From IMG/VR virus record IMGVR_UViG_3300046333_000090: a stretch of 64,000 nt of DNA. The stretch is one strand, 5' to 3'. How positions within the stretch are numbered: the first letter of the stretch is position 1; each line of letters opens with the position of its first letter. Both the position numbers and the translations under genes were made by a program. Under the pieces are notes generated by a model. That model saw nothing but the letters and a program-made list of their open reading frames with translations, searched no databases and was not told the DNA's origin. Shown piece after piece: positions 953 through 63,732 of this stretch. The DNA comes from a virus.

Positions 953-985
953 AAGGTGAGGCATTCTAGTCACCTCTCAGAGTAT
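953..985 (-). repeat. partial copy of the dispersed intergenic cassette core
   Basis: Reverse complement TACTCTGAGAGGTGACTAGAATGCC matches the core GCTGAGAGGGGTCTAGAATGC. Confidence 0.6.
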
Positions 986-1015
986 ATTTGTAAATTAATC
1001 CCACAATCGAAAAAA

Positions 1016-1969
1016 ATGGAAGAGTATTTGTTTGTAGAGAAATATGCACCCAGAACTGTAGATCAGTGCATTTTACCATCAGAAATCAAGAAAGTATTTA
1101 TAGAATATAGAAATACTGGCAATATTCCTAATTTGATCCTTACATCTCCGCCAGGTGTTGGCAAAACTTCGAGTATTAAGGCATTAGTAAGAGATTTAGG
1201 AATGGATCTATTGTTCGTGAATGGGAGTAATGAGGGACGTTATCTAGATACTATCAGAGATAAGGTTGTGCAATTTTGTTCGTCTGTATCGATGCTGAAT
1301 GACTCACCAAAAAAGAAAGTTGTTATTTTGGATGAGTTTGACAATACATTAGATAACGTACAGTTATGTTTAAGAGGGGTAATTGAAGAATTTCAATCTA
1401 ATGTTATTTTTGTATTTACGGCAAATAATTATAATAAAATTCTCCCAGCCATCATTTCAAGATGTAGTACTATTGAGTATGTGATACCAAAAGAAGAAAA
1501 GAAGCAAATGATGATCGAGGTTTATAAGCGATTAGAATTTGTTCTCAATGAAGAAAATATTTCTTTTGAAAAACCTGTGTTAATCTCACTAGTAAAGAAT
1601 TTATTTCCTGATATTCGCAAAATATTTAATGAAGTACAAAGGCATTCTGTAGGTGGGGTGTTAGATGGTTCTGCTTTCATTATAACTACTAATGATAAAA
1701 TAACTCAATTAGTTGAATTGATGAGAAATAAAAAATTTGAGCAGATCCGCATTTGGGTATCTACTCACAACAATCATCTCACTAACTCTTATCGTTTACT
1801 ATATGATGCGTTAAGATTGGTTTTAGAGGATGCTGGGATTGCTCAATGTATTTTGATCATAGCTGATTATCAACATAAAGCAAATTTTGCTGTCGATCAA
1901 GAAATCAACTATCTTGCTATGATCGTGTCGATAGCCTATGATCCCGATGTCAGGTGGTTAAACAAGTAA
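1016..1969 (+). CDS. 44: sliding clamp loader large subunit (T4 gp44)
   Basis: Motifs FVEKYAP, Walker A SPPGVGKT, Walker B ILDEFD and SRC. The likely start is ATG1016 rather than TTG917. Confidence 0.93.
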   Translation: MEEYLFVEKYAPRTVDQCILPSEIKKVFIEYRNTGNIPNLILTSPPGVGKTSSIKALVRDLGMDLLFVNGSNEGRYLDTIRDKVVQFCSSVSMLNDSPKKKVVILDEFDNTLDNVQLCLRGVIEEFQSNVIFVFTANNYNKILPAIISRCSTIEYVIPKEEKKQMMIEVYKRLEFVLNEENISFEKPVLISLVKNLFPDIRKIFNEVQRHSVGGVLDGSAFIITTNDKITQLVELMRNKKFEQIRIWVSTHNNHLTNSYRLLYDALRLVLEDAGIAQCILIIADYQHKANFAVDQEINYLAMIVSIAYDPDVRWLNK

Positions 1970-1983
1970 AATTTATTTATTAT

Positions 1984-2014
1984 TTTTTATATCCCTAATG
2001 ATAGGGATATTTTT
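1984..2014. terminator. hairpin terminator after gp44
   Basis: ATATCCCTA-ATGA-TAGGGATAT flanked by T-runs. Confidence 0.55.
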
Positions 2015-2130
2015 ATATATGTTAATTTATTGATATATATGTGCCCTACTTTAATTAAAGTAGGAATTTTTTTTAGATAAACGAATAAAACCCTGCTAAA
2101 TACTTATGTAATGCAACGTAAGTATGATAA

Positions 2131-2649
2131 ATGGTAGATTTCAGTAAGTTTGACTGGGTGAGTATTTTTAATGTAGTGGCATCTACTGCAAAAATGACTA
2201 ATAATCAGCGCAGATGTTTAAGAACCGAGATCATAGAATTAGCATTATCAAAGCATTCTGGTGGGCAACTCAAATATGTGGGCGACTCAATGAATGGATG
2301 TGACTTTATTGATAATGATAATATTCGCTACGAGTGTAAATCCAGACAAAAGATGTTTTCTAAATCCAGAAATGGTTGTACTAAAGAAATAATACTAAAG
2401 AACTTTTACAGAAAATCGGAACCCATATCTCACCAAACATTCGATCATATGATTATGATGGATTCTACAGAAAATTCTATTGGAGTAGTTGATTATGAAA
2501 CAGCCATCAAATACAGTAATATTACCGATAGTATTATAACTACCAAGATAGCATTGAATGAAATTAACTATGTGACAGAAAAAGTTGTTACTAATAATGT
2601 CATTGATTTTGAGCAAACCTTGAATACATTAATATTTGCCTCTATTTGA
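2131..2649 (+). CDS. hypothetical protein, PD-(D/E)xK nuclease-like
   Basis: GCDF...YECKS pattern. Confidence 0.55.
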   Translation: MVDFSKFDWVSIFNVVASTAKMTNNQRRCLRTEIIELALSKHSGGQLKYVGDSMNGCDFIDNDNIRYECKSRQKMFSKSRNGCTKEIILKNFYRKSEPISHQTFDHMIMMDSTENSIGVVDYETAIKYSNITDSIITTKIALNEINYVTEKVVTNNVIDFEQTLNTLIFASI

Positions 2650-2674
2650 CAATTTAATATAAATCTATTATAAT
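2646..2674 (+). promoter_or_regulatory. sigma70-type promoter
   Basis: TTGACA-N17-TATAAT upstream of gp62. Confidence 0.65.
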
Positions 2675-2702
2675 AGTATATGACTGACTCGAAATAAATA
2701 AA

Positions 2703-3532: not shown

Positions 3533-3664
3533 TTTATTAAATTTAATAATCACTTTCTAACTTGTATGGGGAGTGATTATTAATATGTGCTGAGAGTGCC
3601 CCAAAATGCTCTATAACGCACGGAATTCATAAATATGATTACTAGTATATAATCATAATAAACT
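3533..3664 (+). repeat. dispersed intergenic cassette (palindrome, hairpin, core, late-promoter-like CATAAATA)
   Basis: ATTAAATTTAAT, an AATCACT..AGTGATT hairpin, then GCTGAGAGTGCCCCAAAATGCTCTATAACGCACG..ATAAATATGATTACTAGTA. Confidence 0.8.
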
Positions 3665-21900: not shown

Positions 21901-22095
21901 GAACCAAAAAGAAATAGAATGGTAATAAATGGGATTCTCTCTGGGCAATGTGTCGAAATCATCCAGCCAAGTCACCCAATATCCGATATCAATGATACTG
22001 GAATTCACGAACATACTGTAGCAGTTAAGAATAATAAATTAGACGAATTTATTAAGCTATCTCAAGACAATGAGTTTCTTGAATTTCCTATCTAA
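18955..22095 (+). CDS. nrdA: class Ia ribonucleotide reductase alpha, fragment a (ATP cone to NLCxE), with two inteins
   Basis: ATP cone VFKRDG; LPTPIMSG.R; FSS|C; SNL|CVE. Confidence 0.93.
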   Translation: MQVFKRDGSIEPLDLEKIHTMVFRACEGVDDVSPSLVVMNSKIQLTDGIATEYIQNLLVTSANNLITIEEPNYQYVAARLLLFGLYKSLYPQWKTFGLVHIYHHITRFKNKYDSILFDSYSKEDWDVLNEAIDHSKDYKFTYASLQQLIDKYLIQDRSTGFVYEIPQYAYMLIAATVFHDYPVETRLATVIDYYHAISDHEINLPTPIMSGVRTKQRNFSSCFPAGQLVHTSTGLKPIETISVGNMVLTHAGRMMSVLATNAKYFEQKYVAIDTYSTLNDQFVSTDDHLIFAAKDVGCIRGSEHRSCICSQGIYKYCEKYPRQYSEDCINLYKNDLFEPKWTPAKELDDNYWVHVAYNKSVVNTEYLIISDIIDIGSRYDINEEGLIHYKSYRSDIWYVPNKIYLNEELFRLIGYYLAEGHATDGGSMGFTFGNKDKYIIDDCVNIIQNVFGYTVIPSNNPYDNSTKVSICSKIITNLFIRLCSNKFDKKFICYELMNASIELQKQLLIGVIRGDGCAYSQGLQVGLSNKQLIYQLFDISLRLKLSPTINVQKYNDGIRQDVYTIYFPRSANYDFIMEVGKDVHKVNYTSKTYAYGIWKDDNYFTKIKSVKIINSIDDNIVYDLQIAGDESFVVSGLSVHNCALLDCDDSTLSISANNQATAMLTAASSGIGLNVGRMRSIGSSIRNGTVIHPGIVPFLKIFESTGKAFSQAARGGKLTCYYHIFGYEIETVIQLKNNRANEVSSVKHLDYCICISELFYKRFINNQNITLFCNSDTPGLYDAFGTPAFDKLYEYYEKKDGVRKKVVSMQKLFVDLMEQRSETARIYIMNVDHANTHSPYLDGVYMSNLCVAPETLLLTNKGYLPIGTLEDQSVTIWNGWEWSDTVVRKTGIDQKLINIKFQDDKGNIHNIECTEYHKFFIQSRNDVIEVRANDLIVGQYIQNWNPPEFLIDSDITLHQYHRDWWVYSTHNIERLSDTYCLTEPKRNRMVINGILSGQCVEIIQPSHPISDINDTGIHEHTVAVKNNKLDEFIKLSQDNEFLEFPI
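19618..20877 (+). mobile_element. intein 1 in NrdA (420 aa, LAGLIDADG homing endonuclease)
   Basis: CFPAGQ...TDDH...LIGYYLAEG...LIGVIRGDG...VYDLQI...VHN|C. Confidence 0.92.
21502..21948 (+). mobile_element. mini-intein 2 in NrdA (149 aa, C-terminal Gln)
   Basis: CVAPETLLLT...CTEYHKF...TYCLTEP...LSGQ|C. Confidence 0.9.
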
Positions 22096-22156
22096 TATCC
22101 TCTCAGACCCCTCTAGGATGCCCTACAACGTACGATAATTAAAAATATGACTACTG
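22096..22156 (+). repeat. cassette core at the nrdA split
   Basis: CTCTCAGACCCCTCTAGGATGCCCTACAACGTACGA..AAATATGACTACT; its ATG is the start of fragment b. Confidence 0.75.
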
Positions 22157-23118
22157 ACATCTTCCGCATAGCAACAGACCGCCAATTCGATCCTAATACC
22201 GAAACATTAGTAGATGATGTAAAGATAATTGACAGACTGCCACCAGGCATCACATCTTGTGTATTAGGCGCAATCAGTTGGGATAAGTTATCTGACAACA
22301 TGTCAGATAACTTTATCAAAATGAAACGATGGTGTGATTTAGAGATCAGATCATTAAATCAGATCATCGACATACAGGAATACAATATCCCTAGTACAGA
22401 GATAGCCACTAAATCCGCAAGATATTTGGGGGTAGGGATTAATGGTTATGCAACATTTGCTGCACGATTAGGTTTATCATATAATCATAAAGAATTGTGG
22501 CAAATCACTCACGATCTTGCAGAAATGCAGATGTTTTGTCTATTATCTGCATCTAATAACTTAGCCAAAGAAGTAGGTGAATGTAAATGGTTTTATAAAA
22601 CTAAATATTCACAAGGAATTCTACCTATCGATCACTACAGGAAAAGTGTAGATGATGTAGTTCCTAATAATCTTAATATGGATTGGGAAGGGTTGAGAGA
22701 ATCAATTTTGATGAATGGACTCAGAAACAGTGCATTTTCTGCGGTGATGCCTGTACAATCATCTTCTGTAATTAGTAACAGTACTAATGGAATCGAACTA
22801 CCTCGCGCACCATTACAAATCATAAAGTCAAAGAATCGATTAATTCGACAAATAGTAAAAGATTTTAAAAAATTAGAAGATAATTATGAGTATTGTTGGG
22901 AAAAAAGTACAAATACAGGATATATCAATATTTGTGCCGTAATTCAAAAATTCTTCGACCAATCTATCTCAGCCAACTTGTATTACGATCCTAAATGGTT
23001 TTCAGACCAAACTATACCAATGGGTACGATGATTGGTGATGTCTTATATGCGTACAAGATGGGATTAAAAACATTGTATTATGCTAATTCAAATGACGGT
23101 CGAGATGATTATGAATAA
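22147..23118 (+). CDS. nrdA: ribonucleotide reductase alpha, fragment b
   Basis: SCVLGAI (C462 equivalent), RYLGVG, GLRNS, STNGIE, DQSISAN and GLKTLYY; there is no terminal CxxC. Confidence 0.92.
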   Translation: MTTDIFRIATDRQFDPNTETLVDDVKIIDRLPPGITSCVLGAISWDKLSDNMSDNFIKMKRWCDLEIRSLNQIIDIQEYNIPSTEIATKSARYLGVGINGYATFAARLGLSYNHKELWQITHDLAEMQMFCLLSASNNLAKEVGECKWFYKTKYSQGILPIDHYRKSVDDVVPNNLNMDWEGLRESILMNGLRNSAFSAVMPVQSSSVISNSTNGIELPRAPLQIIKSKNRLIRQIVKDFKKLEDNYEYCWEKSTNTGYINICAVIQKFFDQSISANLYYDPKWFSDQTIPMGTMIGDVLYAYKMGLKTLYYANSNDGRDDYE

Positions 23119-25499: not shown

Positions 25500-25552
25500 T
25501 TATTGTTCATAAATCACTATAGAAAAGAGCAATTATGGAGTTGCTCTGATTA

Positions 25553-25630
25553 ACATGCTCTGAGAGGGGTGTAGAATGCTGTGTAACGCACAGAAATTAT
25601 AAATAAGATTATTATTATCAAAATATAAAA
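25553..25630 (+). repeat. dispersed cassette core with TATAAATA
   Basis: GCTCTGAGAGGGGTGTAGAATGCTGTGTAACGCACAGAAATTATAAATAAG. Confidence 0.8.
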
Positions 25631-28110: not shown

Positions 28111-28121
28111 TACATTAATAA

Positions 28122-36294: not shown

Positions 36295-36295
36295 T

Positions 36296-36935: not shown

Positions 36936-36944
36936 ATAGTGGAT

Positions 36945-37024: not shown

Positions 37025-37044
37025 TAATACCCGTTTAATTCTAC

Positions 37045-41369: not shown

Positions 41370-41551
41370 TCGCATTTGGTTATAATAGTTTAGAAAATAT
41401 TTTCCAGAGAAATTTTGATTTGTTATATATACATAAAATCTCAGCGGAATTTGTTGAATTTAGTGTCCCTTGGGAATTAGATGTCCATATGCAGAGGATC
41501 GCACAATATCAAGATGACCTAAAATATCAAAGAGATACTGCTAATAATTAA
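41360..41551 (+). CDS. 51: gp51-like hub assembly protein in the -1 frame, with no own start codon
   Basis: FLIAFGYNSLENIFQRNFDLLYIHKISAEFVEFSVPWELDVHM begins at a T8 run. Confidence 0.65.
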   Translation, partial: FFLIAFGYNSLENIFQRNFDLLYIHKISAEFVEFSVPWELDVHMQRIAQYQDDLKYQRDTANN

Positions 41552-41640
41552 ATTTAATCCCCCTCTAATTAATTAGAGGGGGATTATCATATTTATGATT
41601 TTCGTGCGTTGAGGGGCATATTAACGGCATCTGAGATTAT
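41547..41640 (-). repeat. dispersed cassette, minus orientation
   Basis: Palindrome, AATCCCCCTCTAAT/ATTAGAGGGGGATT hairpin and CATATTTATGATTTTCGTGCGTTGAGGGGCAT. Confidence 0.82.
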
Positions 41641-41641
41641 A

Positions 41642-44341
41642 CTAGACGAAAATACTGTCCGTAACATCTCCACGTATACTAGATATTGCCGTGAATCTGT
41701 GCAAATCAGAGGAAAAATTGAAATTTGCGGTGGAATACACAGTTTTATTAGCAGTATTGATGACATCACCTCCGATGATTGTATTGCTGTTTATTGGATT
41801 CGCAGATAGCGTAGGGAGTGGAGTAACTTTAGGGACAGTTTTGTATGGTGTATTGGGTGTTGAAAGTGGGGTAACTTTAGGGACAGGGTTATATGATGGA
41901 GAATTGAATGTGGGGGGGGTTGGGACTGGTGTATATACTGGGGATATATTTTTTAATTTAGTGCTCTTTTTCTTACCACTGCCACTATTAGGAGTCATAC
42001 TTTTCTTGCCAGTACCACTGCTATCTGGATTATCCATTATAGTTTCCATATTTACATTAGGTAGTGGAGTTACTTTCGGAACAGGATTATATCCACTGGG
42101 AGTATCTTTGTATGTTAATTTGTTTTGTTCTGGAATAGGTTCTATATCTTTACCTTTACCTAACCCCAACATTTGTGTAAGAGTAGTAAATGCCCCACCT
42201 ACTTTTCCATAATCAATATTGCGTGTAGTAGCTACTGGAGCAACAGGAGTAGGAGTAGTATTTGTAGGATTTGTAGTAGGGGTACCGAGAGCAGTATTAT
42301 TATTATTATCTAATAATCTTACGGCTTGGGCAAATTTTAATACTTCGCCATTTTTGCCATTACTGCCACTAGTTCCTGTATTTATTCTGGTTCCAACTTT
42401 TTTACTATGGTGCCAATATCTCCCATCTCCCAAATATATGCCAACGTGGGTTATTTCTCCATCATTTTTTATTCCATTTATACCAGCATAGGTATCTTTC
42501 CACTGAACAATATCCCCACGTTTTATTTTAGCTTTATCATATATTATCTGATTTGGGGCACCAAAACTGTTTGCTCTTGCCGGATTAGTTTGTTTTCCTA
42601 TACCCGTAAGGGCAAAATCTGCTGGAGTATCTGTTATTCCCATATCAATATTTAATTTTTTTCCTATATTTCTGACGGAATTTGCACATTGTACTGGTAT
42701 GCCTTTATATAATCCTAAAGTTTTTTCCGCAGTACTAGCAATTTTTTCATTTATATCAGATACTACCCCCCCCTTACTATATCCATTTACCCCCATACTT
42801 CCATCAGTTTCTAATACATTACTCGCCATATTAGGTACATCATATCCCTTATCAATAGCTTCCTTTATCCTAATACTGGTTAAATTTTTATTGGTCTTGG
42901 TGGCTGGAGTATCATATGGAATTACAAAACTACTGTCATTGGTTTTATGCTTACTCACGTATTCGCTACCATGTCCAATAAAACTAGTACTTTTGCCCCC
43001 ATTTAATGATACCGGATATCCATTATAACTACCACTAATCCAACCACTACCTTTACCAGATACACTACCACCAATAGACTTAGTGGGTAATGGTGTGTCA
43101 CTTGGAATTTTACTAATAAAGGCATTTAATATATCTGCTAATAATCCTCTAACTGTTGTGTCATTAGAACTTTGGAATGTACCTTCTCCGCCTACACTAT
43201 CTATATTGGGATTAGATGTACCTATTATCTTATCTAAACTGTGATTATTGTTTGTAGATGGACTGATTTTTCCTAGGTGCAGTTCAGTTTTTGTATCTCC
43301 TATGGGAACATCAAACATCTTCCCTATGCTATTGATTAGTGGAAATAATGTGTTACTAGAATCTGGATTGTCTTTCATGGAAGATTTCAATATACCAACA
43401 ATGCTACTTCCTATAATAGAAAATGGCAATTTCATTAAATCATGAAATTTTGGTGCGATGCTTTTTATATCCTTATTAAAAGTTTCATTATTAGTGACTC
43501 CAGTTAATAATGAATTTAATGGTTTAATATTATTTTTTTGTGATGTATTTTCTACCACTCCACCTTTGGCGAGTTTTGGTAAATTTGGATTTATATCTTT
43601 TTTAGTGGAGTCGGGGTTAGTTAGATTAACTAATGATTGTGGTTGAACTGGTGTTTCTGGTACAGTTGGTTGACTAAAAATTTCTGGGTTTGGTTCAGAT
43701 TTTTGTGTTGGTGCTAGATCAGTTACACCTTGTTTTATCGTTTTGTTCGCAGCTTCTACTGATTTTTCTGCAACACCACCTAAATTTTTATTGATTCCTT
43801 CTAATAATCCATTAAACGCTTTACTTATAGTTTTTGGTGTGTCTGTTATTATCTTACCAATGCTATATAAAGGAGAAACCAATACTTTAATAAATCCGAC
43901 TGTACCATTAAAAAAATCTCCAAATACTTTACCAAGCTTGAGTAGATTAGATATACTACCTCCTACCCACCAAAACACCCCATCAACAAAATTTAATATA
44001 AACTTGCCGATGTTATAAAATCCCTTCAGGATATTAGCTAGTTTTTTTGTATTTTTTGGATTTGCGACCCATTCTGCAATTTTATATGCCGCAAATAGTG
44101 TTCCAATTTTTCCGATAAAGTTTAGGAAGTCACTAATTATCCCTCCCGATTTTTTTGATTCTCTGTCGTACTTTGTGTTGTACGTTTGTTTTGCAATATT
44201 TTCTTCTTTTTCTGCGGTTTTGCTTTGGTATTTTTCCTTTTTTTTATTTCTGTATTCGTAATCTTTTTGTTCAAGTGATATTAGTTTATCAATATTTTTA
44301 TTTAATTTTTCTATCTGTGGTATACTGATGTTAATGGACAT
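41642..44341 (-). CDS. tape-measure/hub-like virion protein with NlpC/P60 hydrolase domain
   Basis: Helical G/hydrophobic N-terminus; QCANSV...RGDIVQW...ITHVGIYLGDG; late promoter at 44369-44376. Confidence 0.7.
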   Translation of the reverse strand: MSINISIPQIEKLNKNIDKLISLEQKDYEYRNKKKEKYQSKTAEKEENIAKQTYNTKYDRESKKSGGIISDFLNFIGKIGTLFAAYKIAEWVANPKNTKKLANILKGFYNIGKFILNFVDGVFWWVGGSISNLLKLGKVFGDFFNGTVGFIKVLVSPLYSIGKIITDTPKTISKAFNGLLEGINKNLGGVAEKSVEAANKTIKQGVTDLAPTQKSEPNPEIFSQPTVPETPVQPQSLVNLTNPDSTKKDINPNLPKLAKGGVVENTSQKNNIKPLNSLLTGVTNNETFNKDIKSIAPKFHDLMKLPFSIIGSSIVGILKSSMKDNPDSSNTLFPLINSIGKMFDVPIGDTKTELHLGKISPSTNNNHSLDKIIGTSNPNIDSVGGEGTFQSSNDTTVRGLLADILNAFISKIPSDTPLPTKSIGGSVSGKGSGWISGSYNGYPVSLNGGKSTSFIGHGSEYVSKHKTNDSSFVIPYDTPATKTNKNLTSIRIKEAIDKGYDVPNMASNVLETDGSMGVNGYSKGGVVSDINEKIASTAEKTLGLYKGIPVQCANSVRNIGKKLNIDMGITDTPADFALTGIGKQTNPARANSFGAPNQIIYDKAKIKRGDIVQWKDTYAGINGIKNDGEITHVGIYLGDGRYWHHSKKVGTRINTGTSGSNGKNGEVLKFAQAVRLLDNNNNTALGTPTTNPTNTTPTPVAPVATTRNIDYGKVGGAFTTLTQMLGLGKGKDIEPIPEQNKLTYKDTPSGYNPVPKVTPLPNVNMETIMDNPDSSGTGKKSMTPNSGSGKKKSTKLKNISPVYTPVPTPPTFNSPSYNPVPKVTPLSTPNTPYKTVPKVTPLPTLSANPINSNTIIGGDVINTANKTVYSTANFNFSSDLHRFTAISSIRGDVTDSIFV

Positions 44342-47909: not shown

Positions 47910-49238
47910 ATGCAGTTTGTTGGGGATTACTCATTAACCAATGTATTTTTATCAAACAAAGATAAAATAATAGATATCAAGGAGATGATCGCAGAGATCA
48001 ATATATATGAGTCGGTCAATAGTGTAGCTATCAGTGCAGATCTTACTATATCTGATAATAAGAATATATTAGAATCATTTCCTATAGTTGGTGGGGAATT
48101 TATTACTATATATGTTGGTACAAATAATGACAAATATGTATTAGATTTTGTAATATATAAAATAGATTCAAAAGTAATCTCAGAAAAAAGTCAAGTATAC
48201 ATTTTACGACTTTGTACTAAGGATACCATCACTAATGAAACTAGTAGGTTTAGTAGAAGATTCAAGAATAAATTTAGTGATGAGGTGACTAAAGACCTAC
48301 TAAAAAATTATATTAAAACTACTAAAAAGATTGATGTTGACCAAACCATTTACCCACTAAATTTTGTATCACCTAATTGGCGGGTGTTCGATCTTATTAC
48401 TTGGATGGCTAGGAAAAGTACAAGTATAAAGAATGTTCAATCTGCTGGATACCTTTTTTATGAAGGACTTGATTCTTACCACTACAAAAGTATAGATAAT
48501 TTGTTTGCTCAAACAAGTAAGAATGAGAACATACCATTTACTTATGTTCCTGCAAAAACAAGTACGGATGCTGATAAAAACTATAGAATCGTTAAATATG
48601 TGAGCGATTCATATTTTGATGTATTAGAACAATCCAGGATGGGGGCACTGTCCCATTTTAATGAGCGAATAGATTTTACTAGTAGAACCAAAACTCTTAC
48701 AAAAAGTACACTTAGTAGTATTTGGAAACACCAATCACACTTAGGTGGTGGTAATATTCCAGCACAGATAAACAATTTATTATTTGCTAATCCGTCAAGA
48801 GTAATATATACTCCAATAATTAATCAATTGTTTGGTGAATCTATTGTGTATGACGGAGACGACGATAAAATTAATAAGCTAATAAATCGCAGTGTATATA
48901 GATATACATCGATGGATTTCTTTACTATTAATATTGAGATCGCTGGTAATTTGGGTATTAGAGCGGGTGCTGTTTACACACTGAATATCCCTTCCCCCAA
49001 CCCAGATTCAAATGCCAACAGGAATAGACAAACAGATAATGATCTTAGTGGCAATTGGATGTGCCACAGCATAAAGACATCAATAAACCGTACTTCTACT
49101 ACCAGTATAGTAAGATTATGTAGGGACAGTGTAGGTGGAACAAAAATTCCTATTATAGGTACTTCTGCTAAAAGTATTAATAATGTAGATAGAAGTATTA
49201 TTGATACTGATATTAGGGAACTTAAAAATATAGTCTGA
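47910..49238 (+). CDS. baseplate hub / tail protein (gp27-like)
   Basis: IYES...PIVGGE, FV.PNW, YLFYE..D.Y.YKSIDNL and LSGNW; located upstream of gp5. Confidence 0.7.
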   Translation: MQFVGDYSLTNVFLSNKDKIIDIKEMIAEINIYESVNSVAISADLTISDNKNILESFPIVGGEFITIYVGTNNDKYVLDFVIYKIDSKVISEKSQVYILRLCTKDTITNETSRFSRRFKNKFSDEVTKDLLKNYIKTTKKIDVDQTIYPLNFVSPNWRVFDLITWMARKSTSIKNVQSAGYLFYEGLDSYHYKSIDNLFAQTSKNENIPFTYVPAKTSTDADKNYRIVKYVSDSYFDVLEQSRMGALSHFNERIDFTSRTKTLTKSTLSSIWKHQSHLGGGNIPAQINNLLFANPSRVIYTPIINQLFGESIVYDGDDDKINKLINRSVYRYTSMDFFTINIEIAGNLGIRAGAVYTLNIPSPNPDSNANRNRQTDNDLSGNWMCHSIKTSINRTSTTSIVRLCRDSVGGTKIPIIGTSAKSINNVDRSIIDTDIRELKNIV

Positions 49239-49352
49239 GCGGGGTCTAGAATGCTCTACAACGCATGATAACTCAAATAATGACTATTAGGACAACTCAT
49301 AAAAATAATGACCTTCTAATTGATTAGAAGGTCATTTTATTAAATTTAATAA
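49234..49352 (+). repeat. full dispersed cassette abutting the HNH 3' end
   Basis: CTGAGCGGGGTCTAGAATGCTCTACAACGCATGA...ATGACCTTCTAATTGATTAGAAGGTCAT..TATTAAATTTAATA. Confidence 0.88.
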
Positions 49353-49353: not shown

Positions 49354-50049
49354 TTAGAACATAATAGGTTTATCCCAAGTAAGCTGATTTTCTATGTGTG
49401 TAGCAATTAATTGGTCTAGTTTTATCTGATGTTCTGGTTTGAATTGAATGGTAGAATCTGGCAACCAATTGTGAACTTCTTTGAGGTATCGTTCTGGACT
49501 GACTAATCCAGATTTTACTCCAAACTGATAATGCAAGTTCTGGAGATAATTCATATCTTCAGAACCAAAATTTATTCTCTCACTATTTCTAGGCATATGA
49601 ATTTGTGTTCTATAGCTACTACTACCATTATTATATATTGCACCAATAGGTAGTCCAGATGACTTCTTTCGTAATACTGTATTAAACCAATTAGTAACTA
49701 CTTCTAAATTAGTAAGTTTATTATTACTAGGATCGCCATCTATATGATTAATTACATAGTTATTATTAGTCTTGACTCCAAATACTAATTCATGAATATA
49801 TGTAGTTTGTCCATCTTTATGAGTATGAAATCTACCTCCACTATCAGGATTAAAATTATATAGTTTTAACAATTCTACTTTATCAAGATCTATAGAATTA
49901 GTATATAATTTACCAGATTTAGTATTGAGTAGATGTAATAGATCATCTACAAATAATTGATTATATGTAAGTTTTTGATTACTTTTATTGAGATTATGGT
50001 GAGGTTGATCGAATTGATAGAGATTTAAAATTTTACAGAAATGAATCAT
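49354..50049 (-). CDS. HNH endonuclease (longest member of the repeated family)
   Basis: YIHELVF...INHIDGDPSNNKLTNLEVVT; TGTGTTATAAT promoter upstream. Confidence 0.85.
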   Translation of the reverse strand: MIHFCKILNLYQFDQPHHNLNKSNQKLTYNQLFVDDLLHLLNTKSGKLYTNSIDLDKVELLKLYNFNPDSGGRFHTHKDGQTTYIHELVFGVKTNNNYVINHIDGDPSNNKLTNLEVVTNWFNTVLRKKSSGLPIGAIYNNGSSSYRTQIHMPRNSERINFGSEDMNYLQNLHYQFGVKSGLVSPERYLKEVHNWLPDSTIQFKPEHQIKLDQLIATHIENQLTWDKPIMF

Positions 50050-50125
50050 TTTAATACAATATAAACTGTATAATCATTATAACACAGATTTCATAAATAT
50101 GAATAGAATTACCAAATCATTGTAA

Positions 50126-52585
50126 ATGAATCCCAACTTCAATCACACAAATAACTTAACCCAAAGCAACTTTTTCTATGGCGTAATCGAAAGTACATCT
50201 GATGCCAGTGGGTTGCATAGAGTAAAAGTAAGGATCGTCGGTGTACATAGCGATGATAGAAAAATGTTACCTACTGAGGATCTACAGTGGAGTTTAGTCG
50301 CCAACAGTACAAACTCCACCGGAAAGCATACACTTAAACCAGGGAATTTTGTTGTATGCACATTTCTTGATGCAGATATGCAACAAGCTATTGTGCTATT
50401 TTCATTATTAAGTAAAATCAAACAAAAGGGGGTAGTACTGAACAGTATTCAAGATGCCCAAACCCCAGGGGGAGTATTCATAAACTACAATTCTCCGCCA
50501 TCGCCATCTACAGATAGCGATCAATCTATATATACAGGAACTATACCAGTAGAAACAATAGCCAAATCTCAAGATGGGGCAAATATAGGTAATCCGTTCG
50601 GCAAGAACACCCAAGCAATCGCAGCTAATGGTAAAAATGGTGGTACAGGAATGTTTGCCGATATCGAACGAGAAATCATCTCGTTGGGTAATATATTCAA
50701 ACACGTAGTGTTGTATGATACTGACGACATTACCTTATCCGCAGACATAGATAGCGAAATAGGTATCATACCACTGAGTAGAGTAAACAACATTCCAAAA
50801 TCAGGAATTATAAAAATCGGCGACGAAATAATCACTTATTCTGGTATAGCTGATACAGGATTGTCAGGGCAAATATTGAGAGGAAGTCCAGATAGAAATA
50901 GTATAATATCTACCAAAAAAGCAGAACATAAAGCTGGAGACATAGTAACTTGGATATACCCAAAAGTAAAGAACGACAAAGCACCATTATTTTATAGTCA
51001 ACTCACCGGACAAGCTATAGATTTCGCCAAAGAGATCAAAAAAAGGATGTCAGTAGTCAATGGATACATTACATGGTTAGTAAATAAAATTTCTAGTCAG
51101 ATTGTATCTACATTAAGTGAATTAATTGCTGGCATAACATTAGCACTCAAAACTCCTACTGCATTGATTGGTAAGATCATAGTAGATGCACTACTATTGG
51201 TTCTATCTCAAGTATTATGTTCTTTTGATAAGGCAACTGTTGACTCATTAGTACTATCAATAGAGCAATATATTACAGATCAAGTAACTACATTAATTAG
51301 GAGTTTTTATGAAAATGCCACAGCTATTCAACAGTTCATCAGTGATTGTACTAATAAAATATTTGATGCCGTATTACAATTTGCTAGTATTATTCAATCT
51401 ATTGGCAACCTAATTACAAATATTACAAGGATATTCCCTGGTGCTAGTGGCGAAGCTATTAAGGTAATCGACACTAATTCAGAACCGGATACTTTGAATA
51501 AGGATAAGGTAAATGGTATATCATTTCCGGATCTAACCAATACTGCAAATATCGTAGCAAAATTATTAAATTTTTTAGGATTGGGTTGTAAGCAAGAAGT
51601 TGGGGAAAATATTAATGTTCCTGAATGTGTGACTACTGGATATTTCCCACCAGCTAATTTATGCGATCCTAATCCTGACCTTATATCAGCACTGAATAAT
51701 TTGTGGCGACCTTTACCTCAGTTTATCACTAATTATGACTTTGGTGGTGGTCTGAAGGCTGAGTATGACGGTACGCCAGGGGTAGAGAGGACGTTATTGT
51801 CATCTCCTGCGGGTACTTATACAGAAGTGTTCAATGATGGAACTAGTCGCACAGTAATTTCCAAAGATTCGTATACACTCATTTTGAATGATAACAATAT
51901 CGAGATAAAAGGCAATTGCAATTGGAAAGTTGATGGTAATTTCGGTTTAAAAGTATCTGGGAATCTAGATTTGGAGGTTGGTAAAGAATTACGAATGTCT
52001 ATCGGTGGTAGTAGCAAGATTACATATGGCGGTTCACATAATACAATTTACGGTGGGGACAGTGTGATAAATGCGACAAATAAGTTGAATATAACTGGAA
52101 GTCAAATTGGGTTAGTTGCTTCTGGTGTAGTAGACATCAAAGGTGGAGTATTCGATGTACTTACCAGTGAGATCAATCTTACATCATCTGGTAGTTTGAG
52201 TTTGATTTCATTGCATAGTAATTTTGTTAGTGGGGTATCGCATAAGGAGATACATAGCGGAACCGTAGATAAACTTGTGGTTGGTTCGCAGAAAAAGATT
52301 AATCTTGGTAGTTACGTTGGTGACGCTATAGGAAATCATCAAACTAATTATATGAGTACTAAGACCTCTAACGTGGCAGGAATTCATACAATTACTAACA
52401 ATTCTTTGTACACCATTAGTAGTAATATTAAAACAGAAAAAGTAGAGCAATTAAGTACATTTAATACAAAAGTACTACAAATTAACGCAAATAATAAAAT
52501 TGAGACAATCAACGGTAGTAGTCTTAACTATGCAAATGGCTTGGCATTGCGTCAAACTAGTGGGGGTATAAACATGGATTCCTGA
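50126..52585 (+). CDS. 5: baseplate central spike (T4 gp5-like)
   Basis: OB-fold G.IE..D..RVKVRIVG.H..L.W; D.TPG.ER; C-terminal beta-helix repeats; no recognisable lysozyme domain. Confidence 0.82.
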   Translation: MNPNFNHTNNLTQSNFFYGVIESTSDASGLHRVKVRIVGVHSDDRKMLPTEDLQWSLVANSTNSTGKHTLKPGNFVVCTFLDADMQQAIVLFSLLSKIKQKGVVLNSIQDAQTPGGVFINYNSPPSPSTDSDQSIYTGTIPVETIAKSQDGANIGNPFGKNTQAIAANGKNGGTGMFADIEREIISLGNIFKHVVLYDTDDITLSADIDSEIGIIPLSRVNNIPKSGIIKIGDEIITYSGIADTGLSGQILRGSPDRNSIISTKKAEHKAGDIVTWIYPKVKNDKAPLFYSQLTGQAIDFAKEIKKRMSVVNGYITWLVNKISSQIVSTLSELIAGITLALKTPTALIGKIIVDALLLVLSQVLCSFDKATVDSLVLSIEQYITDQVTTLIRSFYENATAIQQFISDCTNKIFDAVLQFASIIQSIGNLITNITRIFPGASGEAIKVIDTNSEPDTLNKDKVNGISFPDLTNTANIVAKLLNFLGLGCKQEVGENINVPECVTTGYFPPANLCDPNPDLISALNNLWRPLPQFITNYDFGGGLKAEYDGTPGVERTLLSSPAGTYTEVFNDGTSRTVISKDSYTLILNDNNIEIKGNCNWKVDGNFGLKVSGNLDLEVGKELRMSIGGSSKITYGGSHNTIYGGDSVINATNKLNITGSQIGLVASGVVDIKGGVFDVLTSEINLTSSGSLSLISLHSNFVSGVSHKEIHSGTVDKLVVGSQKKINLGSYVGDAIGNHQTNYMSTKTSNVAGIHTITNNSLYTISSNIKTEKVEQLSTFNTKVLQINANNKIETINGSSLNYANGLALRQTSGGINMDS

Positions 52586-52587
52586 TA

Positions 52588-52712
52588 ACATACGCTGAGA
52601 GGGGGATAGGATGCCCCTCAACATATGAAAAACAGAAATATGACTACTGGCATCAAATCATAAAAATAATGACTTCCTAATTAATTTTAGAAGGTCATTA
52701 TTAAATTTAATA
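52588..52712 (+). repeat. full dispersed cassette
   Basis: CGCTGAGAGGGGGATAGGATGCCCCTCAACATATGA..AATATGACTACT, then hairpin and palindrome. Confidence 0.85.
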
Positions 52713-52933
52713 TTTAATAATGTTGCATACATCCAATAAATGTGTTATAATGATTATAACCTACGCCAGTCTTACATGATTGTCTTAAAAGTGAGAAAAT
52801 CTGTCAACAACATTATTAACAACCATTATTGGTTTCCTAAAATTTTGTATCAGATCGGCACCAGCAAAATTAAAATTTATATGTTATACTAGTAGCATAT
52901 CGAAAAAATAAGCAAATTATATGTATATACCCC

Positions 52934-53346: not shown

Positions 53347-53420
53347 TCTTTATTATCTCTTAAAATACTCACTCTACATTTAGTGTAGGGTGAGTATTTT
53401 TAATAAATAGGAATATACAT

Positions 53421-53542
53421 ATTAAATTTAATAAACCCGTTCTAGAATGCGTTAGAACGGGTTTATTTTTATATTTTAATACTAGTAGTCGTATTTATGG
53501 TTATCATGCCTTGTAGGGTATACTAAAACCATCTTAAAGTAT
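53421..53542 (-). repeat. dispersed cassette, minus orientation
   Basis: Palindrome, AAACCCGTTCTA..TAGAACGGGTTT hairpin and ACTAGTAGTCGTATTTATGG..CATGCCTTGTAGGGTAT. Confidence 0.75.
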
Positions 53543-53624
53543 AATCGGTTTGCTCCAATATAAATTATATAATAATTATAACATAAATATAGTTAATGCA
53601 ATTAAATATATATATACATATAAT

Positions 53625-59020: not shown

Positions 59021-59030
59021 TAATATATAA

Positions 59031-59152
59031 TTATTAAATTTAATAAACCCCCTCTAGATGATTCTAGAGGGGGTTTATTTATGATTTGATACTAGTGTCA
59101 TTATTCTAGTTTCTATGCTCTACAAGTCATCCTAGACCCCTCTCAGCACATA
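59031..59152 (-). repeat. full dispersed cassette fused to the 3' end of an HNH remnant
   Basis: Reverse complement WDKPIMC-stop runs directly into TGTGCTGAGAGGGGTCTAGGATG, then hairpin and palindrome. Confidence 0.85.
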
Positions 59153-59410
59153 ATAGGTTTATCCCATGTAAGCTGATTTTCTAAGTGTGCTTCTATTAAT
59201 TGATCTAGTTTTGTTTGATGTTCTGCTGGGAATACAATATTAGGATCTGGCAACCAATTATCTACTTCTAATAGATATCTTTCTGGACTGACTAAACCAG
59301 ATTTTACTCCAAACTGGTAATGAATGTTTTGTAAGTAATTAATTAAGATCTTTTGAACAAAAATTTATTCGTTTCTTTATTCTTGGTCTAGCAATTCGTG
59401 TTTCATAGCT
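59143..59410 (-). pseudogene. 3' remnant of an HNH-family gene
   Basis: Encodes QFGVKSGLVSPERYL...HLENQLTWDKPIMC with a frameshift and no HNH motif. Confidence 0.8.
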
Positions 59411-59495
59411 ATTAATATATTGTCAGAATACTCTAGAATACTTTAGAATCGATAGTAACTATAAATATGAATAGAAATATTAAATTTAATAAGAC

Positions 59496-60407
59496 ATGGC
59501 TGCTATACAATTATTAAGAAAAAGTAGTACTAATGGAGTAATACCTACTACTGCTCAATTATTATTAGGAGAATTGGCGATCAATACATTTGAGGGGAGA
59601 TTATTCAGTAAAAAAAATAACGGCATAGAATCAATCACTGAGTTTGTAAGTACTACCGGAAATTTTATAGGTACAATAGATACGATACCCATTGGTAGAG
59701 GTACTGGAGGATTAGCAGGAAATATTAGAATAGGTATCGGAGCATTAGCAAATAATACAGGAAGTACCTCAAATATAGCGGTAGGAACAAATGCACTAGC
59801 CAGTCTTAATGTGGTTAATACTGGCAATAATATTGGATTGGGACAGAATACCCTAACTGCCAATATTAGTGGTACGGATAATATAGCAATAGGTACAGGC
59901 GCATTATCCGCCAATACAGTAAGTGGTGGTTTGGCAATAGGTGTCAATGCAGGTAGTAACAGTACTATTGGTGCGGGAAATATATTTTTGGGAAACAATA
60001 CTACATTAGCTGCTGCTGCTAACACTAATTCAATCGTAATTGGCAATGGTACGGCTGGATTAGGTAATAATACTACTGTCATCGGGACTACTGCTACGAC
60101 ATTTACTAAATTGTGGGGAAAATTATCACTAGATAGTACAATTGTTACTGTTGCTGCTACTACATTTACTATTAATAAACCAGCAGGAATTCTTCTTTGT
60201 TCTGTGGGCAACGCAATCATTACCGTAAATAATAGTTTGGTGACAGTTAATAGTATAGTGTCAGTACAGTTAAGAAATATTCCTTCCCCGACTACTGCTG
60301 TTATCCGTAATGTGGTAGTCAATAATGGGTCATTTACCATCAACTTTGCGGCAACTCCTACAGTCACCCAACCAAGAATATCATTTATTGTTATTGAGAC
60401 AATCTAA
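59496..60407 (+). CDS. tail fibre / fibre-like structural protein
   Basis: IQL.R...PT...GELAIN..EG.LF N-terminus and NxAxGxxAL repeats; late promoter at 59460-59467. Confidence 0.75.
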   Translation: MAAIQLLRKSSTNGVIPTTAQLLLGELAINTFEGRLFSKKNNGIESITEFVSTTGNFIGTIDTIPIGRGTGGLAGNIRIGIGALANNTGSTSNIAVGTNALASLNVVNTGNNIGLGQNTLTANISGTDNIAIGTGALSANTVSGGLAIGVNAGSNSTIGAGNIFLGNNTTLAAAANTNSIVIGNGTAGLGNNTTVIGTTATTFTKLWGKLSLDSTIVTVAATTFTINKPAGILLCSVGNAIITVNNSLVTVNSIVSVQLRNIPSPTTAVIRNVVVNNGSFTINFAATPTVTQPRISFIVIETI

Positions 60408-60408
60408 A

Positions 60409-60490
60409 TATACGCGGAGAGGGGTCTAGACTGCCTTACAACGCACGAAAACTCCAAATATGACTACAAGTACCAGATTACCTAAATAAT
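60409..60490 (+). repeat. dispersed cassette core
   Basis: CGCGGAGAGGGGTCTAGACTGCCTTACAACGCACGAAAACTCCAAATATGACTAC. Confidence 0.82.
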
Positions 60491-60510
60491 TAATATTAAT
60501 AATAAAAATT

Positions 60511-61556: not shown

Positions 61557-61565
61557 CTATTCCCT

Positions 61566-61645
61566 AATGTTCTCTCAGATGCCCCTAGAATGCCTTGTAA
61601 GGTCTTTTGGGGCATTTTGATATAAATCCATATTAAATTTAATAC
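61566..61645 (+). repeat. degenerate cassette copy with palindrome
   Basis: TCTCTCAGATGCCCCTAGAATGCC...TATTAAATTTAATA. Confidence 0.6.
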
Positions 61646-61815
61646 CATGTTGCTGTAGCCAATTCTCGTTAGACTTAATGTTATTACAAATCTTTCAAAA
61701 GAAATATCAAAAAAGATCGAATATCCTCTTGACATTCGATATTCGATAATGTTAGCTTTAGTGCATGGGGAAAACAAACACCCCAACTAACCACTAAACA
61801 GCTAAACGAAATTAT

Positions 61816-63045
61816 ATGTCAATCGAAGTCGTAAACCATACTACAGCAACAGCAACAGGTAAAGTAAAAAGTCCTTCTGCCTACCTCAAATCTATTACAG
61901 ACGCAAAGAAAATTGGCGAATTTTTCACAATTCCTTTATCAGCCTTAGAAATATACCCAAACTTCAACAAGCGCACTGACTATAAACTCGATGAATTGAA
62001 ATTATTTATTGAACAAAACAGTGTTAGTGCATTACCAGCTATCAAGCTAATGTATATCGATGGCAAATTGTATGTAGAAGAAGGGCATCGGCGACAAAAA
62101 GCTTGTGTTGAACTGGACTTGCCCCCAGAAACCCCAATCAAAGTATTTATTGGGGAACCATCATCTTCCGCAGAAAGACTAGCGCGCCAAATTTCCAGTA
62201 ATTCTGGGGAGAAATATAATTTTGTAGAGATGGTGGCGGTGGTTAAAGAGTTGATTCAAAAGGAAGGTATGACCCAGACTCAAGTAGCCAAGATGATTGG
62301 TAAAACTCAAGGTTCTGTAAGTCAGATGTCTTTGTTCTTCAATTACAGCAATCTCTTGCTGCTCGAAATTCAACATGGTTCCATCAAGTATACACGAGTA
62401 ATGGAATTACAAAAATCTGGTTATACCGAAGAACAGATTTTAGAAGTAATCAAGAAAAGTACTCATAATTCTACTTCAGATAAAGCACCAGTACCACCAA
62501 TAAATCCTGATTCTGATAAATTAAACCAATTGTTAGGCGACGATCATCCGATAGATGATAAAAATACATCTGGTGGTAAGCGGAAAGGTAGTAAATCTGG
62601 TGGTAAGCAGAAAGGTAGTAAATCTGGGGGTACGCGGAAAGGGGATGAACCCGTAGAAGAGGATCTGATTAATGCGGAATCCCTAGAAAACCCAGAAGAG
62701 GATCTGATTAATGCGGAATCCCTAGAAAACTCAGAAGAGGATCTGATTAATGCGGAATCCCTAGAAAACTCAGAAGAGGATCTGATTAATGCGGAATCCC
62801 TAGAAAACTCAGAAGATTATGATGACGAAGAACTAAAAAAAGCGGTAATACTCAAAGATAGCGGTGTTGCTCCCAATAAACCAACTGCAACAGAGACTAG
62901 TATTAAAAAAGTTAATGTAAAATTGGTGTTGGTCAATTTCTTCATTGATGCCAAGATTGTTGATAATGGCGATGGTACTGTTTCATACAACATCACCCAA
63001 GAACAGCACGCTGAGTTTCAGCGTAATTGTATGAATATCCAGTAA
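61816..63045 (+). CDS. ParB-like CTPase domain + HTH protein with acidic repeat tail
   Basis: FNKR, EGHRRQKA (ParB GxRR box) and HTH GMTQTQVAKMIGKTQGSVSQ. Confidence 0.78.
   Translation: MSIEVVNHTTATATGKVKSPSAYLKSITDAKKIGEFFTIPLSALEIYPNFNKRTDYKLDELKLFIEQNSVSALPAIKLMYIDGKLYVEEGHRRQKACVELDLPPETPIKVFIGEPSSSAERLARQISSNSGEKYNFVEMVAVVKELIQKEGMTQTQVAKMIGKTQGSVSQMSLFFNYSNLLLLEIQHGSIKYTRVMELQKSGYTEEQILEVIKKSTHNSTSDKAPVPPINPDSDKLNQLLGDDHPIDDKNTSGGKRKGSKSGGKQKGSKSGGTRKGDEPVEEDLINAESLENPEEDLINAESLENSEEDLINAESLENSEEDLINAESLENSEDYDDEELKKAVILKDSGVAPNKPTATETSIKKVNVKLVLVNFFIDAKIVDNGDGTVSYNITQEQHAEFQRNCMNIQ
62569..62643 (+). repeat. 27-bp tandem repeat x3 (SGGK(R/Q)KGSK)
   Basis: TCTGGTGGTAAGC.GAAAGGTAGTAAA units. 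Confidence 0.8.
62656..62811 (+). repeat. 39-bp tandem repeat x4 (EEDLINAESLEN(P/S))
   Basis: GAAGAGGATCTGATTAATGCGGAATCCCTAGAAAAC(C/T)CA occurs four times. Confidence 0.95.
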
Positions 63046-63177
63046 TTTAATAAGGGAACGCTTGATACCGATCCCTTTAATGACAAGAAGGTATTAAGTC
63101 AAACTACTTCAATTTTAACCTTTTTTTAACCATTTACTACTTGACTTATTAACGTCGTATGTACTATACTAACTGTA

Positions 63178-63444
63178 ATGAGTCTAAAACTCACGTCTTC
63201 TAACCCAAACAAGGAATATCGAAACATGAACGCTAAAGATATGATCATTTCATCGGTAGACTCTAATGGAGATGTCACTATTCTTGCCACTAAGTACGAT
63301 CCCACAATTCTCCACCCTATCACGGTGTTTGCCAACACTGGATTTTACGGGTGGATTCTAAAAATCCACGACAACAAAACTACGATTAATAATGATGCTC
63401 CTACCAGCATCTTAAATCGAGTATATAACTTAATCACTTGGTAG
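63178..63444 (+). CDS. hypothetical protein
   Basis: 88-aa ORF. Confidence 0.5.
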   Translation: MSLKLTSSNPNKEYRNMNAKDMIISSVDSNGDVTILATKYDPTILHPITVFANTGFYGWILKIHDNKTTINNDAPTSILNRVYNLITW

Positions 63445-63459
63445 ATTCTATGTCCAATC

Positions 63460-63493
63460 CAACTAAGTCCACACATTTGTGTGGACTTAGTTG
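63460..63493. terminator. long perfect hairpin
   Basis: CAACTAAGTCCACAC-ATTT-GTGTGGACTTAGTTG. Confidence 0.6.
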
Positions 63494-63585
63494 ATGCTAC
63501 TTTAGTATTATAAACTTTCTTCTCTGTTTCTGTTTACCCACTTCAAAAAAAAAATATAACTAAAAAGTTATCTTTTTTTTGTTAT

Positions 63586-63732
63586 TGGGATAAGCCAATT
63601 ATGCTCTCAGATCCGTCTAGAGTGCCCCTCAACGCACGAAAACTAGAATAATGACTTACTATATCAAATTACAGCTGTCGTGCCTTACAGAGCATTCTAG
63701 AGGGATATTAAATTTGATATAGTAAGTCATCA
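63586..63732. repeat. HNH 3' tip plus cassette core, followed by rearranged inverted cassette fragments
   Basis: TGGGATAAGCCAATTATG-CTCTCAGATCCGTCTAGAGTGCCCCTCAACGCACG; ATGACTTACTATATCAAATT and AATTTGATATAGTAAGTCAT form an inverted pair. Confidence 0.7.

Follow-up and report, generated by a model that had tools for sequence, protein, structure and literature searches.

Mobile regulatory cassettes are among the few engines that have been proposed for gene shuffling in T4-type phages. The PeSL and PmSL cassettes, described from the phage pairs RB49/phi1, PST/T4 and nt-1/KVP40, are the best known of them (PMC2839356, PMC4122927), and such cassettes have so far been of early (PeSL) or middle (PmSL) type only and have come from cultured coliphages and vibriophages. 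In this study, a stretch of 64,000 nucleotides from an uncultured T4-like myophage (IMG/VR virus record IMGVR_UViG_3300046333_000090, 33% GC, hereafter the window) was found to contain a family of about 17 intergenic cassettes of 85-130 bases, about one per 4-5 kb, that share a core of about 35 bp, here called G. We describe this family, its modules, the geometry of its junctions, its insertion polymorphism and its adjacency to homing endonuclease genes (HEGs). The explanation that we favour, and to which we would give an even chance, is that the copies are HEG-linked intergenic cassettes spread by recombination that keep the flanking genes expressed, PeSL-like in their working, late in type and equipped with an extra core. 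The family extends the idea of the mobile regulatory cassette to an uncultured freshwater clade, to late promoters, to conserved replication and baseplate modules and to homing endonuclease junctions.

Like PeSL and PmSL, the copies are repeated composites, part of them with a promoter and part with a strong hairpin, that fill the space between one gene's stop codon and the start codon of the next; their junctions vary between related phages, and they would offer portable homology for shuffling. The part that PeSL copies share is a sigma-70 early promoter (or, in PmSL, a Mot-box middle promoter), whereas in this family the promoter, where present, is of the late TATAAATA type and the shared part is a 35-bp GC-rich core that lacks a promoter consensus; moreover, the copies stand inside core replication and baseplate modules and are tied to homing endonuclease junctions. 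The term 'late promoter' is absent from the 2014 PeSL paper. Since the sigma-70 core is missing and a GC-rich core is added, the family works like PeSL but is not a member of it. An earlier interpretation of the window made from its letters and open reading frames (ORFs), hereafter the sequence-only reading, had named PeSL as the known analogue, which was apt for the stop-to-start span and the variable junctions, though not for the sigma-70 core. Separately, an 86-nt repeat of the window (98% identical between 5333-5418 and 63913-63998) consists of a GC hairpin, then TTGACT, then a -10-like box; it is putatively a genuine early promoter-terminator cassette of PeSL-like kind and does not belong to the present family.

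The family was retrieved by repeat finding on both strands, and its core motif, with three or fewer mismatches, matched four times in the window against none in 100 shuffles. An nhmmer profile built from 8 copies and run on the window returned 13 strong copies (E 2e-22 to 2e-8), with profile position 1 at 3575+, 22087+, 25545+, 28123-, 33210+, 37032-, 41650-, 49220+, 52580+, 53552-, 59161-, 60400+ and 63591+, together with five partial ones at 956-992(-), 61565-61600(+), 63668-63701(-), 50087-50122(+) and 59409-59483(+). The dispersed, two-way repeat family announced by the sequence-only reading was thereby recovered: all 15 places that it had named hold copies, three extra fragments came on top, and the core is GC-richer than its surroundings as it had said (core GC is 52%, compared with 22% in the remainder of the element and 33% in the whole window). 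All 13 strong copies sit in spacers between genes, within a non-coding share of 12.4% of the window (P ~2e-12).

The 5' edge of the cassette is TAATAT, the TAA or TAG of which (alignment columns 1-3) is often the stop codon of the upstream gene, and a TGA follows at columns 11-13; in 11 of 18 copies from the window and its relatives the real stop of the upstream gene lies at this edge, usually inside the first 13 columns. G comes next, beginning with GCTGAGAGGGG in A-type copies and with CTCTCAGATGCC in B-type copies and continuing in both with TCTAGAATGCCCTACAACGCA. The B-type corresponds to the second 5' subtype CTCTCAGA of the sequence-only reading and is present at 22093, 41644, 61565 and 63597; the idea that the two subtypes are the arms of a single hairpin was rejected, as they differ by 4-5 substitutions. 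After the core stand a promoter-like box, AACTATAAATA, and a leader, TGACTACTAGTATCAAATCATAAAAATAATG. The leader runs into the next gene in six copies (before 3665, nrdA-b, 25631, 33299, gp53 and 60511), and in six others (28117, 41644, 49226, 52586, 53546 and 59155) it is followed by a long perfect hairpin and the palindrome TATTAAATTTAATA. The modules are separable, as had been proposed: the core occurs with a hairpin of its own at 938-995 and 61565, and the promoter-leader occurs alone at 50087. At 59409 G has decayed and the promoter and leader survive, while 49226 and 52586 show the opposite. The copies and associated features of the window are as follows.

938..995, minus strand: partial copy, the 5' half of an A-type core and then its own hairpin GCCTCACC..GGTGAGGC (nhmmer E 1.4e-5; fold).
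3577..3664, plus strand: A-type copy 3581, downstream of a regA-like gene (regA Pfam match); core, CATAAATA and leader up to the ATG of gene 3665, with the putative promoter 30 nt before the ATG (nhmmer E 9e-20).
22092..22160, plus strand: B-type copy 22093 between nrdA-a and nrdA-b (the latter by Pfam); nrdA-a ends on its opening triplet TAA, and ATGACTACT forms the first three codons of nrdA-b (nhmmer E 1.4e-12).
25547..25630, plus strand: A-type copy 25551 after nrdB, at a junction that holds an HNH gene in a relative; TATAAATA lies 26 nt before the ATG of 25631.
27990..28121, minus strand: copy 28117, reversed between plus-strand genes; core, TATAAATA, leader, hairpin 28001-28038 and palindrome, adjoining an HNH-cassette promoter remnant at 28117-28200(+) (repeats I25, I18 and D14).
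33216..33298, plus strand: A-type copy 33216, its core folding as a hairpin, leading into 33299 (phrog_385 regulator); right edge of a 2.5-kb block that is missing from a relative.
36936..37030, minus strand: A-type copy 37026, separating the gp48-like gene from gp53; its TATAAATA precedes the gp53 ATG by 37 nt.
41547..41643, minus strand: B-type copy 41644, whose opening triplet TAG serves gene 41642-44341(-) as stop codon; core, CATAAATA, candidate two-way terminator at 41555-41586, then half a palindrome.
49222..49352, plus strand: A-type copy 49226, which overlaps the end of tail gene 47910-49238 at its stop codon; a core, a promoter that has decayed, a leader, a hairpin at 49307-49336 that apparently doubles as terminator of the convergent HNH gene, and the palindrome.
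49354..50049, minus strand: whole HNH_3 homing endonuclease gene (Pfam HNH_3), with its own extended -10 promoter at 50058-50087.
50087..50125, plus strand: promoter-leader module alone (nhmmer profile positions 49-84), CATAAATA 27 nt before the gp5 ATG.
52582..52716, plus strand: A-type copy 52586, separated from the gp5 stop by 1 nt and forming the left arm of a 127-nt inverted pair (repeat I4); a core, a promoter that has decayed, a leader, a hairpin and the palindrome.
53416..53543, minus strand: reversed copy 53546, right arm of the same inverted pair (I4), candidate terminator 53430-53467; three small ORFs lie between the arms.
59031..59154, minus strand: A-type copy 59155, candidate terminator 59042-59079 and palindrome; its CTGA is the stop codon of the truncated HNH gene 59145-59414(-).
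59409..59495, plus strand: decayed copy, core scarcely detectable, TATAAATA (29 nt before the ATG of 59496), leader and palindrome kept (nhmmer E 0.003).
60403..60510, plus strand: A-type copy 60406 between 59496-60407 and 60511-61014.
61565..61640, plus strand: partial B-type copy, its core pairing with a downstream GGGGCAT to give a terminator-like hairpin, then the palindrome.
63597..63730, plus strand: B-type copy 63597 with an inverted partial core at 63668-63701 downstream, a core-loop-inverted-core form that three copies of the relatives show too.

Two pairs of copies stand as inverted repeats. The pair in 33216-37030 brackets a 3.7-kb block with its promoters facing inward, and the pair in 52582-53543 brackets the three small ORFs with its terminators facing inward; both are possible substrates for inversion or cassette exchange.

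The motif (T/C)ATAAATA occurs 30 times in the window, 17 times within the 12% non-coding share, and stands 26-37 nt before 11 start codons, mostly of structural genes, four of them in cassettes and seven outside. In motif and geometry the TATAAATA-type box agrees with a T4-type late promoter, and on this basis (T/C)ATAAATA is the putative late promoter of the window phage, apparently used by its relative too. The sequence-only reading held that several copies embed a late promoter pointing into a gene; this stood for 3665, 25631 and gene 53, where the motif lies 26-37 nt before the ATG, but the canonical ATAAATA is kept in only 6 of the 13 strong copies (two partial copies also carry it). We thus take G, and not the promoter, as the family-defining unit. 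The late promoter falls away as a defining part on two further grounds, since the copies of the relatives lack it and since late promoters of the window outside the family (10896, 44376, 47875, 53582 and 57372) have a similar leader downstream and nothing like G upstream. The promoter-leader is accordingly best described as a presumptive generic late 5' region of the window phage. The palindrome TATTAAATTTAATA is likewise often found between a late promoter box and an ATG, or 0-4 nt from an ATG (10402, 23406, 33527, 44336-44429, 47876 and 59461), and so within the 5' untranslated region of several genes, and TTAAATTTAA occurs in 20 copies in the window, nine genes having one within 30 nt upstream.

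Among the terminator-like sites of the 41-61 kb region, four cassette hairpins top the list, often with a T-run on both strands. A GC hairpin with a T-run, as in intrinsic terminators, was found at 41555-41586 (both strands), 49307-49336, 53430-53467 and 59042-59079, and the hairpins at 28001-28038 and 52665-52702 are backed by folding. Folding z-scores of the cassette hairpins range from -3.7 to -6.1; strong hairpins occur in 6 to 8 copies, while the copies that enter a gene have only a weak and unconserved core fold. In reversed copies the hairpin would terminate the neighbouring forward gene, and the copy's own predicted promoter points into that hairpin.

This order of parts could also be read as that of a small RNA gene (~50-70 nt, driven by the late promoter and ending at the hairpin) or of a 3'-untranslated element that stabilises or processes mRNA. 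A promoter, a conserved leader and a strong hairpin do follow one another in six copies, with a canonical ATAAATA in three, the hairpins fold far better than shuffled sequence, and the core begins at the upstream stop codon. The promoter is decayed in the other half of these six copies, however, the hairpin sequences vary among copies, and often it is the opposite strand that has the better T-run. For G itself RNAalifold gave three invariant pairs and no covariation or compensatory change (14 copies; 9 A-type cores), folding being good in two copies (33216 and 37026) and not in the others, and the element had no Rfam match at gathering or E-value thresholds. The structured RNA of the sequence-only reading is thus not borne out, and we regard an RNA function of the family as quite improbable. 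ARAGORN found no tRNA-like gene in the window.

The explanation by mobile intergenic cassettes draws on comparison with four contigs of related phages.

G001, 30 kb: two strong copies, B-type, lacking ATAAATA.
G002, 59 kb: two strong copies, B-type, lacking ATAAATA.
G003, 29 kb: no strong copy and a single partial one, a core followed downstream by an inverted partial core.
G004, 6.6 kb, from a fourth phage: one strong copy, A-type.

G002 is collinear with the window over 6.2-61.5 kb at ~55-65% protein identity. Of the 42 junctions that both share, 10 bear an element in the window (11 with nrdA-a|b) and 2 in G002, and the sole junction with an element in both, 57407|59496, differs in orientation and context. 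Four junctions compare as follows.

gp48-like|gp53: 109 nt with an element in the window, 1 nt in G002.
59496|60511: 103 nt with an element in the window, 4 nt in G002.
Left of 33299: a 2.5-kb block in the window with copy 33216 at its right edge, the block absent in G002.
38073|38573: 59 nt in the window, an HNH gene plus an element in G002.

The first two are clean filled-versus-empty cases. G002 has no copies at the sites of the window in the same arrangement, which upholds the proposal that the family marks variable junctions. The proposal that it splits genes did not hold: in G002 the same codon marks the break in nrdA, the two pieces lie 1 nt apart and an element is missing, and thus the split is older than the element, which occupies an older junction. 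Of the mobile late-promoter/terminator cassette that the sequence-only reading pictured, a modular, orientation-independent, intergenic cassette at variable junctions therefore remains, and the structured RNA and the gene splitting do not. The two nrdA loci also differ in that nrdA-a has 1046 aa in the window and 619 aa in the relative (22095|22147; G002 15210|15212), owing to a predicted intein-like insert of ~420 aa in the window only. Contig joints between copies (four DNA runs, 41-61 kb; 50087 to 52636; 52628 to 59128, opposite strands) were not used, because they could equally reflect paralogous loci or assembly artefacts; the polymorphism of junctions relative to G002 is observed, while the inter-copy joints are ambiguous as to recombination.

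Short elements that are dispersed in both orientations between genes recall non-autonomous transposons. Correia elements of Neisseria, BOX, RUP and REP/BIME are small dispersed bacterial repeats that carry promoters or terminators. They share with our family a modular, intergenic build of ~100-150 bp, both orientations and the ability to supply promoters or terminators (reviews PMC3184786, PMC10969869), but they differ in having terminal inverted repeats and target duplications and in being moved by a transposase. A transposable element of the miniature inverted-repeat kind (MITE) moved by a transposase would agree with the size, dispersal and position of the copies, and four of them do have a core and an inverted partial core ~85-100 nt apart. 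Terminal inverted repeats are missing from most copies, though, neither they nor a target-site duplication were found at the two clean insertions, neither the window nor the examined relative contigs showed a transposase gene, and at its 3' boundary the element passes into the opening codons of the next gene, which suggests recombination rather than cut-and-paste. The terminal repeats and target duplications of MITE and Correia elements being absent, a transposon of this type is hardly to be believed.

A further kind of repeat in the window bears on spread by recombination alongside HEGs, which we favour. The 200-nt repeats proved to be paralogues of an HNH_3 gene, as listed here.

49354-50049, minus strand: the whole copy listed above.
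17905-18432, plus strand: short copy, with an extended -10 in its 3' slot.
28117-28200(+), 40216-40600(+) and 59145-59414(-): remnants.

Each carries a TGTGTTATAAT-type promoter, three of the five abut elements, and together they form a decay series from whole to truncated to promoter only; whole copies of this HNH_3 family number at least 9 in the relative phage. The HEGs of G002 are six HNH genes and a single GIY-YIG gene. They occupy six junctions, of which five bear in the window either an element or what is left of an HNH gene (hypergeometric P 0.005), and four an element when elements alone are counted (P 0.02). Across four phages, six copies adjoin a HEG of HNH or GIY-YIG type, five of these starting at the HEG stop codon. 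The element starts at an HNH stop in the window (59155, where PIMC-stop lies inside CTGAGAGG), in G002, in G001 and in G004, where the linked HNH gene is riddled with stops and the element intact; in G002 it starts at the GIY-YIG stop too, and the sixth copy, in G001, lies one 60-codon ORF upstream of the GIY-YIG gene. Seven other HNH copies in the relative contigs have TTGACT in their 3' slot, with a TATAAT-like hexamer mostly 17 nt on. An alternative promoter in the same slot suggests that the slot is the position of a module for downstream expression. Where A-type copies stand solo, the 12 nt that lead up to GAGAGG resemble the closing codons of HNH genes linked to an element (ATT ATG YKC TGA), from which we infer that solo copies descend from HNH-linked cassettes with the reading frame deleted. 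The sequence-only reading made no mention of HEGs; the link emerged here from the junctions and the stop codons.

In T4, insertion of an HEG displaces promoters, and promoters of the downstream gene occur in or just after the seg and mob HEGs (PMC2988022). These free-standing HEGs resemble our case in lying between conserved genes, in the placing of such promoters and in the co-conversion of flanking DNA (for trans-homing by MobE, PMC2790892). They differ in that no common repeated trailer is known to be shared by different T4 HEGs or left as many solo copies, whereas in our family a single element comes after HNH and GIY-YIG genes alike and is more numerous than they are. The bypass cassette of gene 60 type with its mobA (bioRxiv 10.1101/2022.08.31.505936) is likewise short, travels with an HNH gene and preserves the interrupted function; its place is within a coding sequence and its target is the ribosome, in contrast to our family, which lies between genes and carries start and stop signals for transcription and translation.

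On the explanation that we favour, the copies would form one lineage-specific family of intergenic regulatory cassettes which, with the free-standing HEGs, belongs to the mobile fraction of this clade. Each cassette would fill the interval between the stop codon on its upstream side and the next start with stops, G, the late promoter-leader and then either an ATG or a terminator and palindrome, and this design would make an insertion between tightly packed genes non-polar. Its stops would halt upstream translation and the downstream gene would be given a start region, often with a late promoter, while in reversed or terminal copies the promoter would fire into its own terminator. Copies may be gained and lost at gene junctions, chiefly those used by HEGs, probably by way of gene conversion triggered by HEGs together with recombination between repeated modules, and later decay of the HEG reading frame would leave solo cassettes. 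The family would then be a testable case of a phage that tolerates repeated insertions between translationally coupled essential genes, and for annotation its cassettes would mark late promoters, terminators and HEG hot spots in the clade.

Several points weigh against this account. Its mechanism of spread is deduced, and the closest copies are 87-92% identical over 40-50 nt with none identical or nearly so, which gives no sign of very recent movement. The clean insertions show neither target-site duplication nor terminal inverted repeats. Promoter and terminator roles are read from the geometry of motifs. Two HEG families, HNH and GIY-YIG, precede the element, which is thus not the private trailer of one HEG; most copies of the window have no HEG neighbour, and most HNH genes of the relative have no element. 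Finally, the identity of the core at 19 of 19 bases is beyond what a purely passive footprint would explain.

This last point bears on the role of G. Its alignment has 11 invariant and nine nearly invariant columns among variable ones, and the 19 identical bases are shared between phages with ~60% protein identity. Conservation across phages that differ by ~40% in their proteins indicates a binding partner, candidates for which are an HEG or another DNA-binding protein, and the 35-bp core may thus be a site for protein recognition or for homology. One version, rather doubtful in our view, is that G is the site at which HEGs of the clade, or a partner DNA-binding protein, mobilise the non-autonomous cassette in trans. 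If true, the cassette would be a phage counterpart of the MITE, driven by homing and not by transposition, which its own stops, late promoter and terminator allow to land harmlessly between any two genes and which has multiplied in the window phage to about one copy per 4 kb.

Another way to account for such conservation is that G is an operator or activator site of a phage regulator and the copies its regulon, repetition then arising from regulatory need and not from mobility; in a variant, the cassette is a middle/late hybrid promoter with a MotA-box-like AATGC(C/T)CTA ~14 bp upstream of TATAAA. That G is conserved in sequence and not in fold, is kept across divergent phages and stands directly upstream of a promoter-like module fits this, and there are precedents in the Mot-box PmSL cassettes of vibriophage nt-1 and in the I-TevI operator, which overlaps a late promoter. 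A regulon fits less well with late promoters that stand outside cassettes and lack G, with the half of the copies that face a terminator or lie antisense to their neighbours, with copies in the relatives that have no usable -10 or late box, and with positions that differ between collinear genomes. As for the variant, the 14 bp spacing is outside the T4 range of 12 +/- 1 bp, and a MotA search of the relative contigs gave no match, though its controls gave no response either. We therefore consider a regulon unlikely. A sigma-70 promoter in the core was rejected too, as the consensus lacks a -35/-10 pair at 16-18 nt spacing; a scan of 41-61 kb found one weak site within a copy (59130-59103, 9 of 12), total counts being those of shuffles. 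CTAG or TCTAGA is not avoided outside the elements.

A further reading is that G encodes a micro-protein, either one of ~20 residues (MPLECPTTH.NY..Y) or an upstream ORF of 5-8 codons (MPYNA..), which could serve for translational coupling across the spacer or as a leader peptide. An open frame ..LECPTTHENYKYDY traverses G. It is unbroken and has an ATG in the relatives, where 4 of 4 copies examined have an in-frame ATG overlapping or following the upstream stop and ~20 open codons; the ATG at alignment columns 26-28 occurs in 16 of 19 copies, and the third positions of that frame are the most variable. Yet 9 of 13 copies in the window have no ATG, GTG or TTG before the peptide, and tests of codon periodicity (permutation P 0.18) and of synonymous differences (share 0.27 against 0.25 in another frame) were not significant. 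Shine-Dalgarno (SD) sites precede 8 of 69 window genes against a background of 9.8%; since the genome does not use them, the G-run GAGAGGGG was rejected as a ribosome-binding site. Peptide coding by G was rejected on the tests and the missing start codons, and a micro-protein strikes us as very improbable. The lack of SD usage, together with A-rich sequence before starts, is a clue to a host with SD-independent initiation.

Searches were also made beyond the window. The 19-mer of the core matches one IMG/VR contig, and in a search with the tail protein that gave 80 T4-like loci a copy was present only in the closest (61% identity, same sample), with none in 1.19 Mb of other T4-like IMG/VR loci. 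Patterns for the A-type and B-type brought up no IMG/VR contigs beyond those already known, the 19-mer core pattern gave only chance matches in GC-rich or coding DNA among JGI metagenome contigs and 185,579 species genomes, and among INPHARED phages nothing matched the element, the 4 kb around it or the HNH protein. To judge by these searches, the family is confined to this phage clade; its density in the window phage is about four to six times that of the relative.

The window itself encodes a clamp loader, RegA, UvsX, an intein-bearing helicase, a primase, the split NrdA, NrdB, gp48-like, gp53 and gp5 baseplate proteins and tail fibres. Its top protein matches are Pelagibacter phage HTVC008M and cyanophages at 28% identity, a protein search found relatives at 98% and 85% identity, whose proteins are present in public assemblies, and none of 50,697 phage records is a near match. 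The DNA runs that contain it are freshwater metagenomes; no RNA run matched among the 24 freshwater runs listed. At 62616-62849 a 39-nt tandem repeat of five copies lies in a ParB/helix-turn-helix-like ORF (61816-63045) and gives an in-frame peptide repeat. Core-like sequence was also met in other settings. At locus L112 (G001:10372-10481), an 11-nt unit of the core, CTCTAAAATGC, is present as five tandem repeats. An otherwise unrelated viral contig of 34% GC (L142, IMG/VR 3300023179_000104) has at 870-900 a terminator hairpin, GACCCCTC-CTGA-GAGGGGTC and then TAGAATGAC, the right arm of which matches the 5' half of the A-type core.

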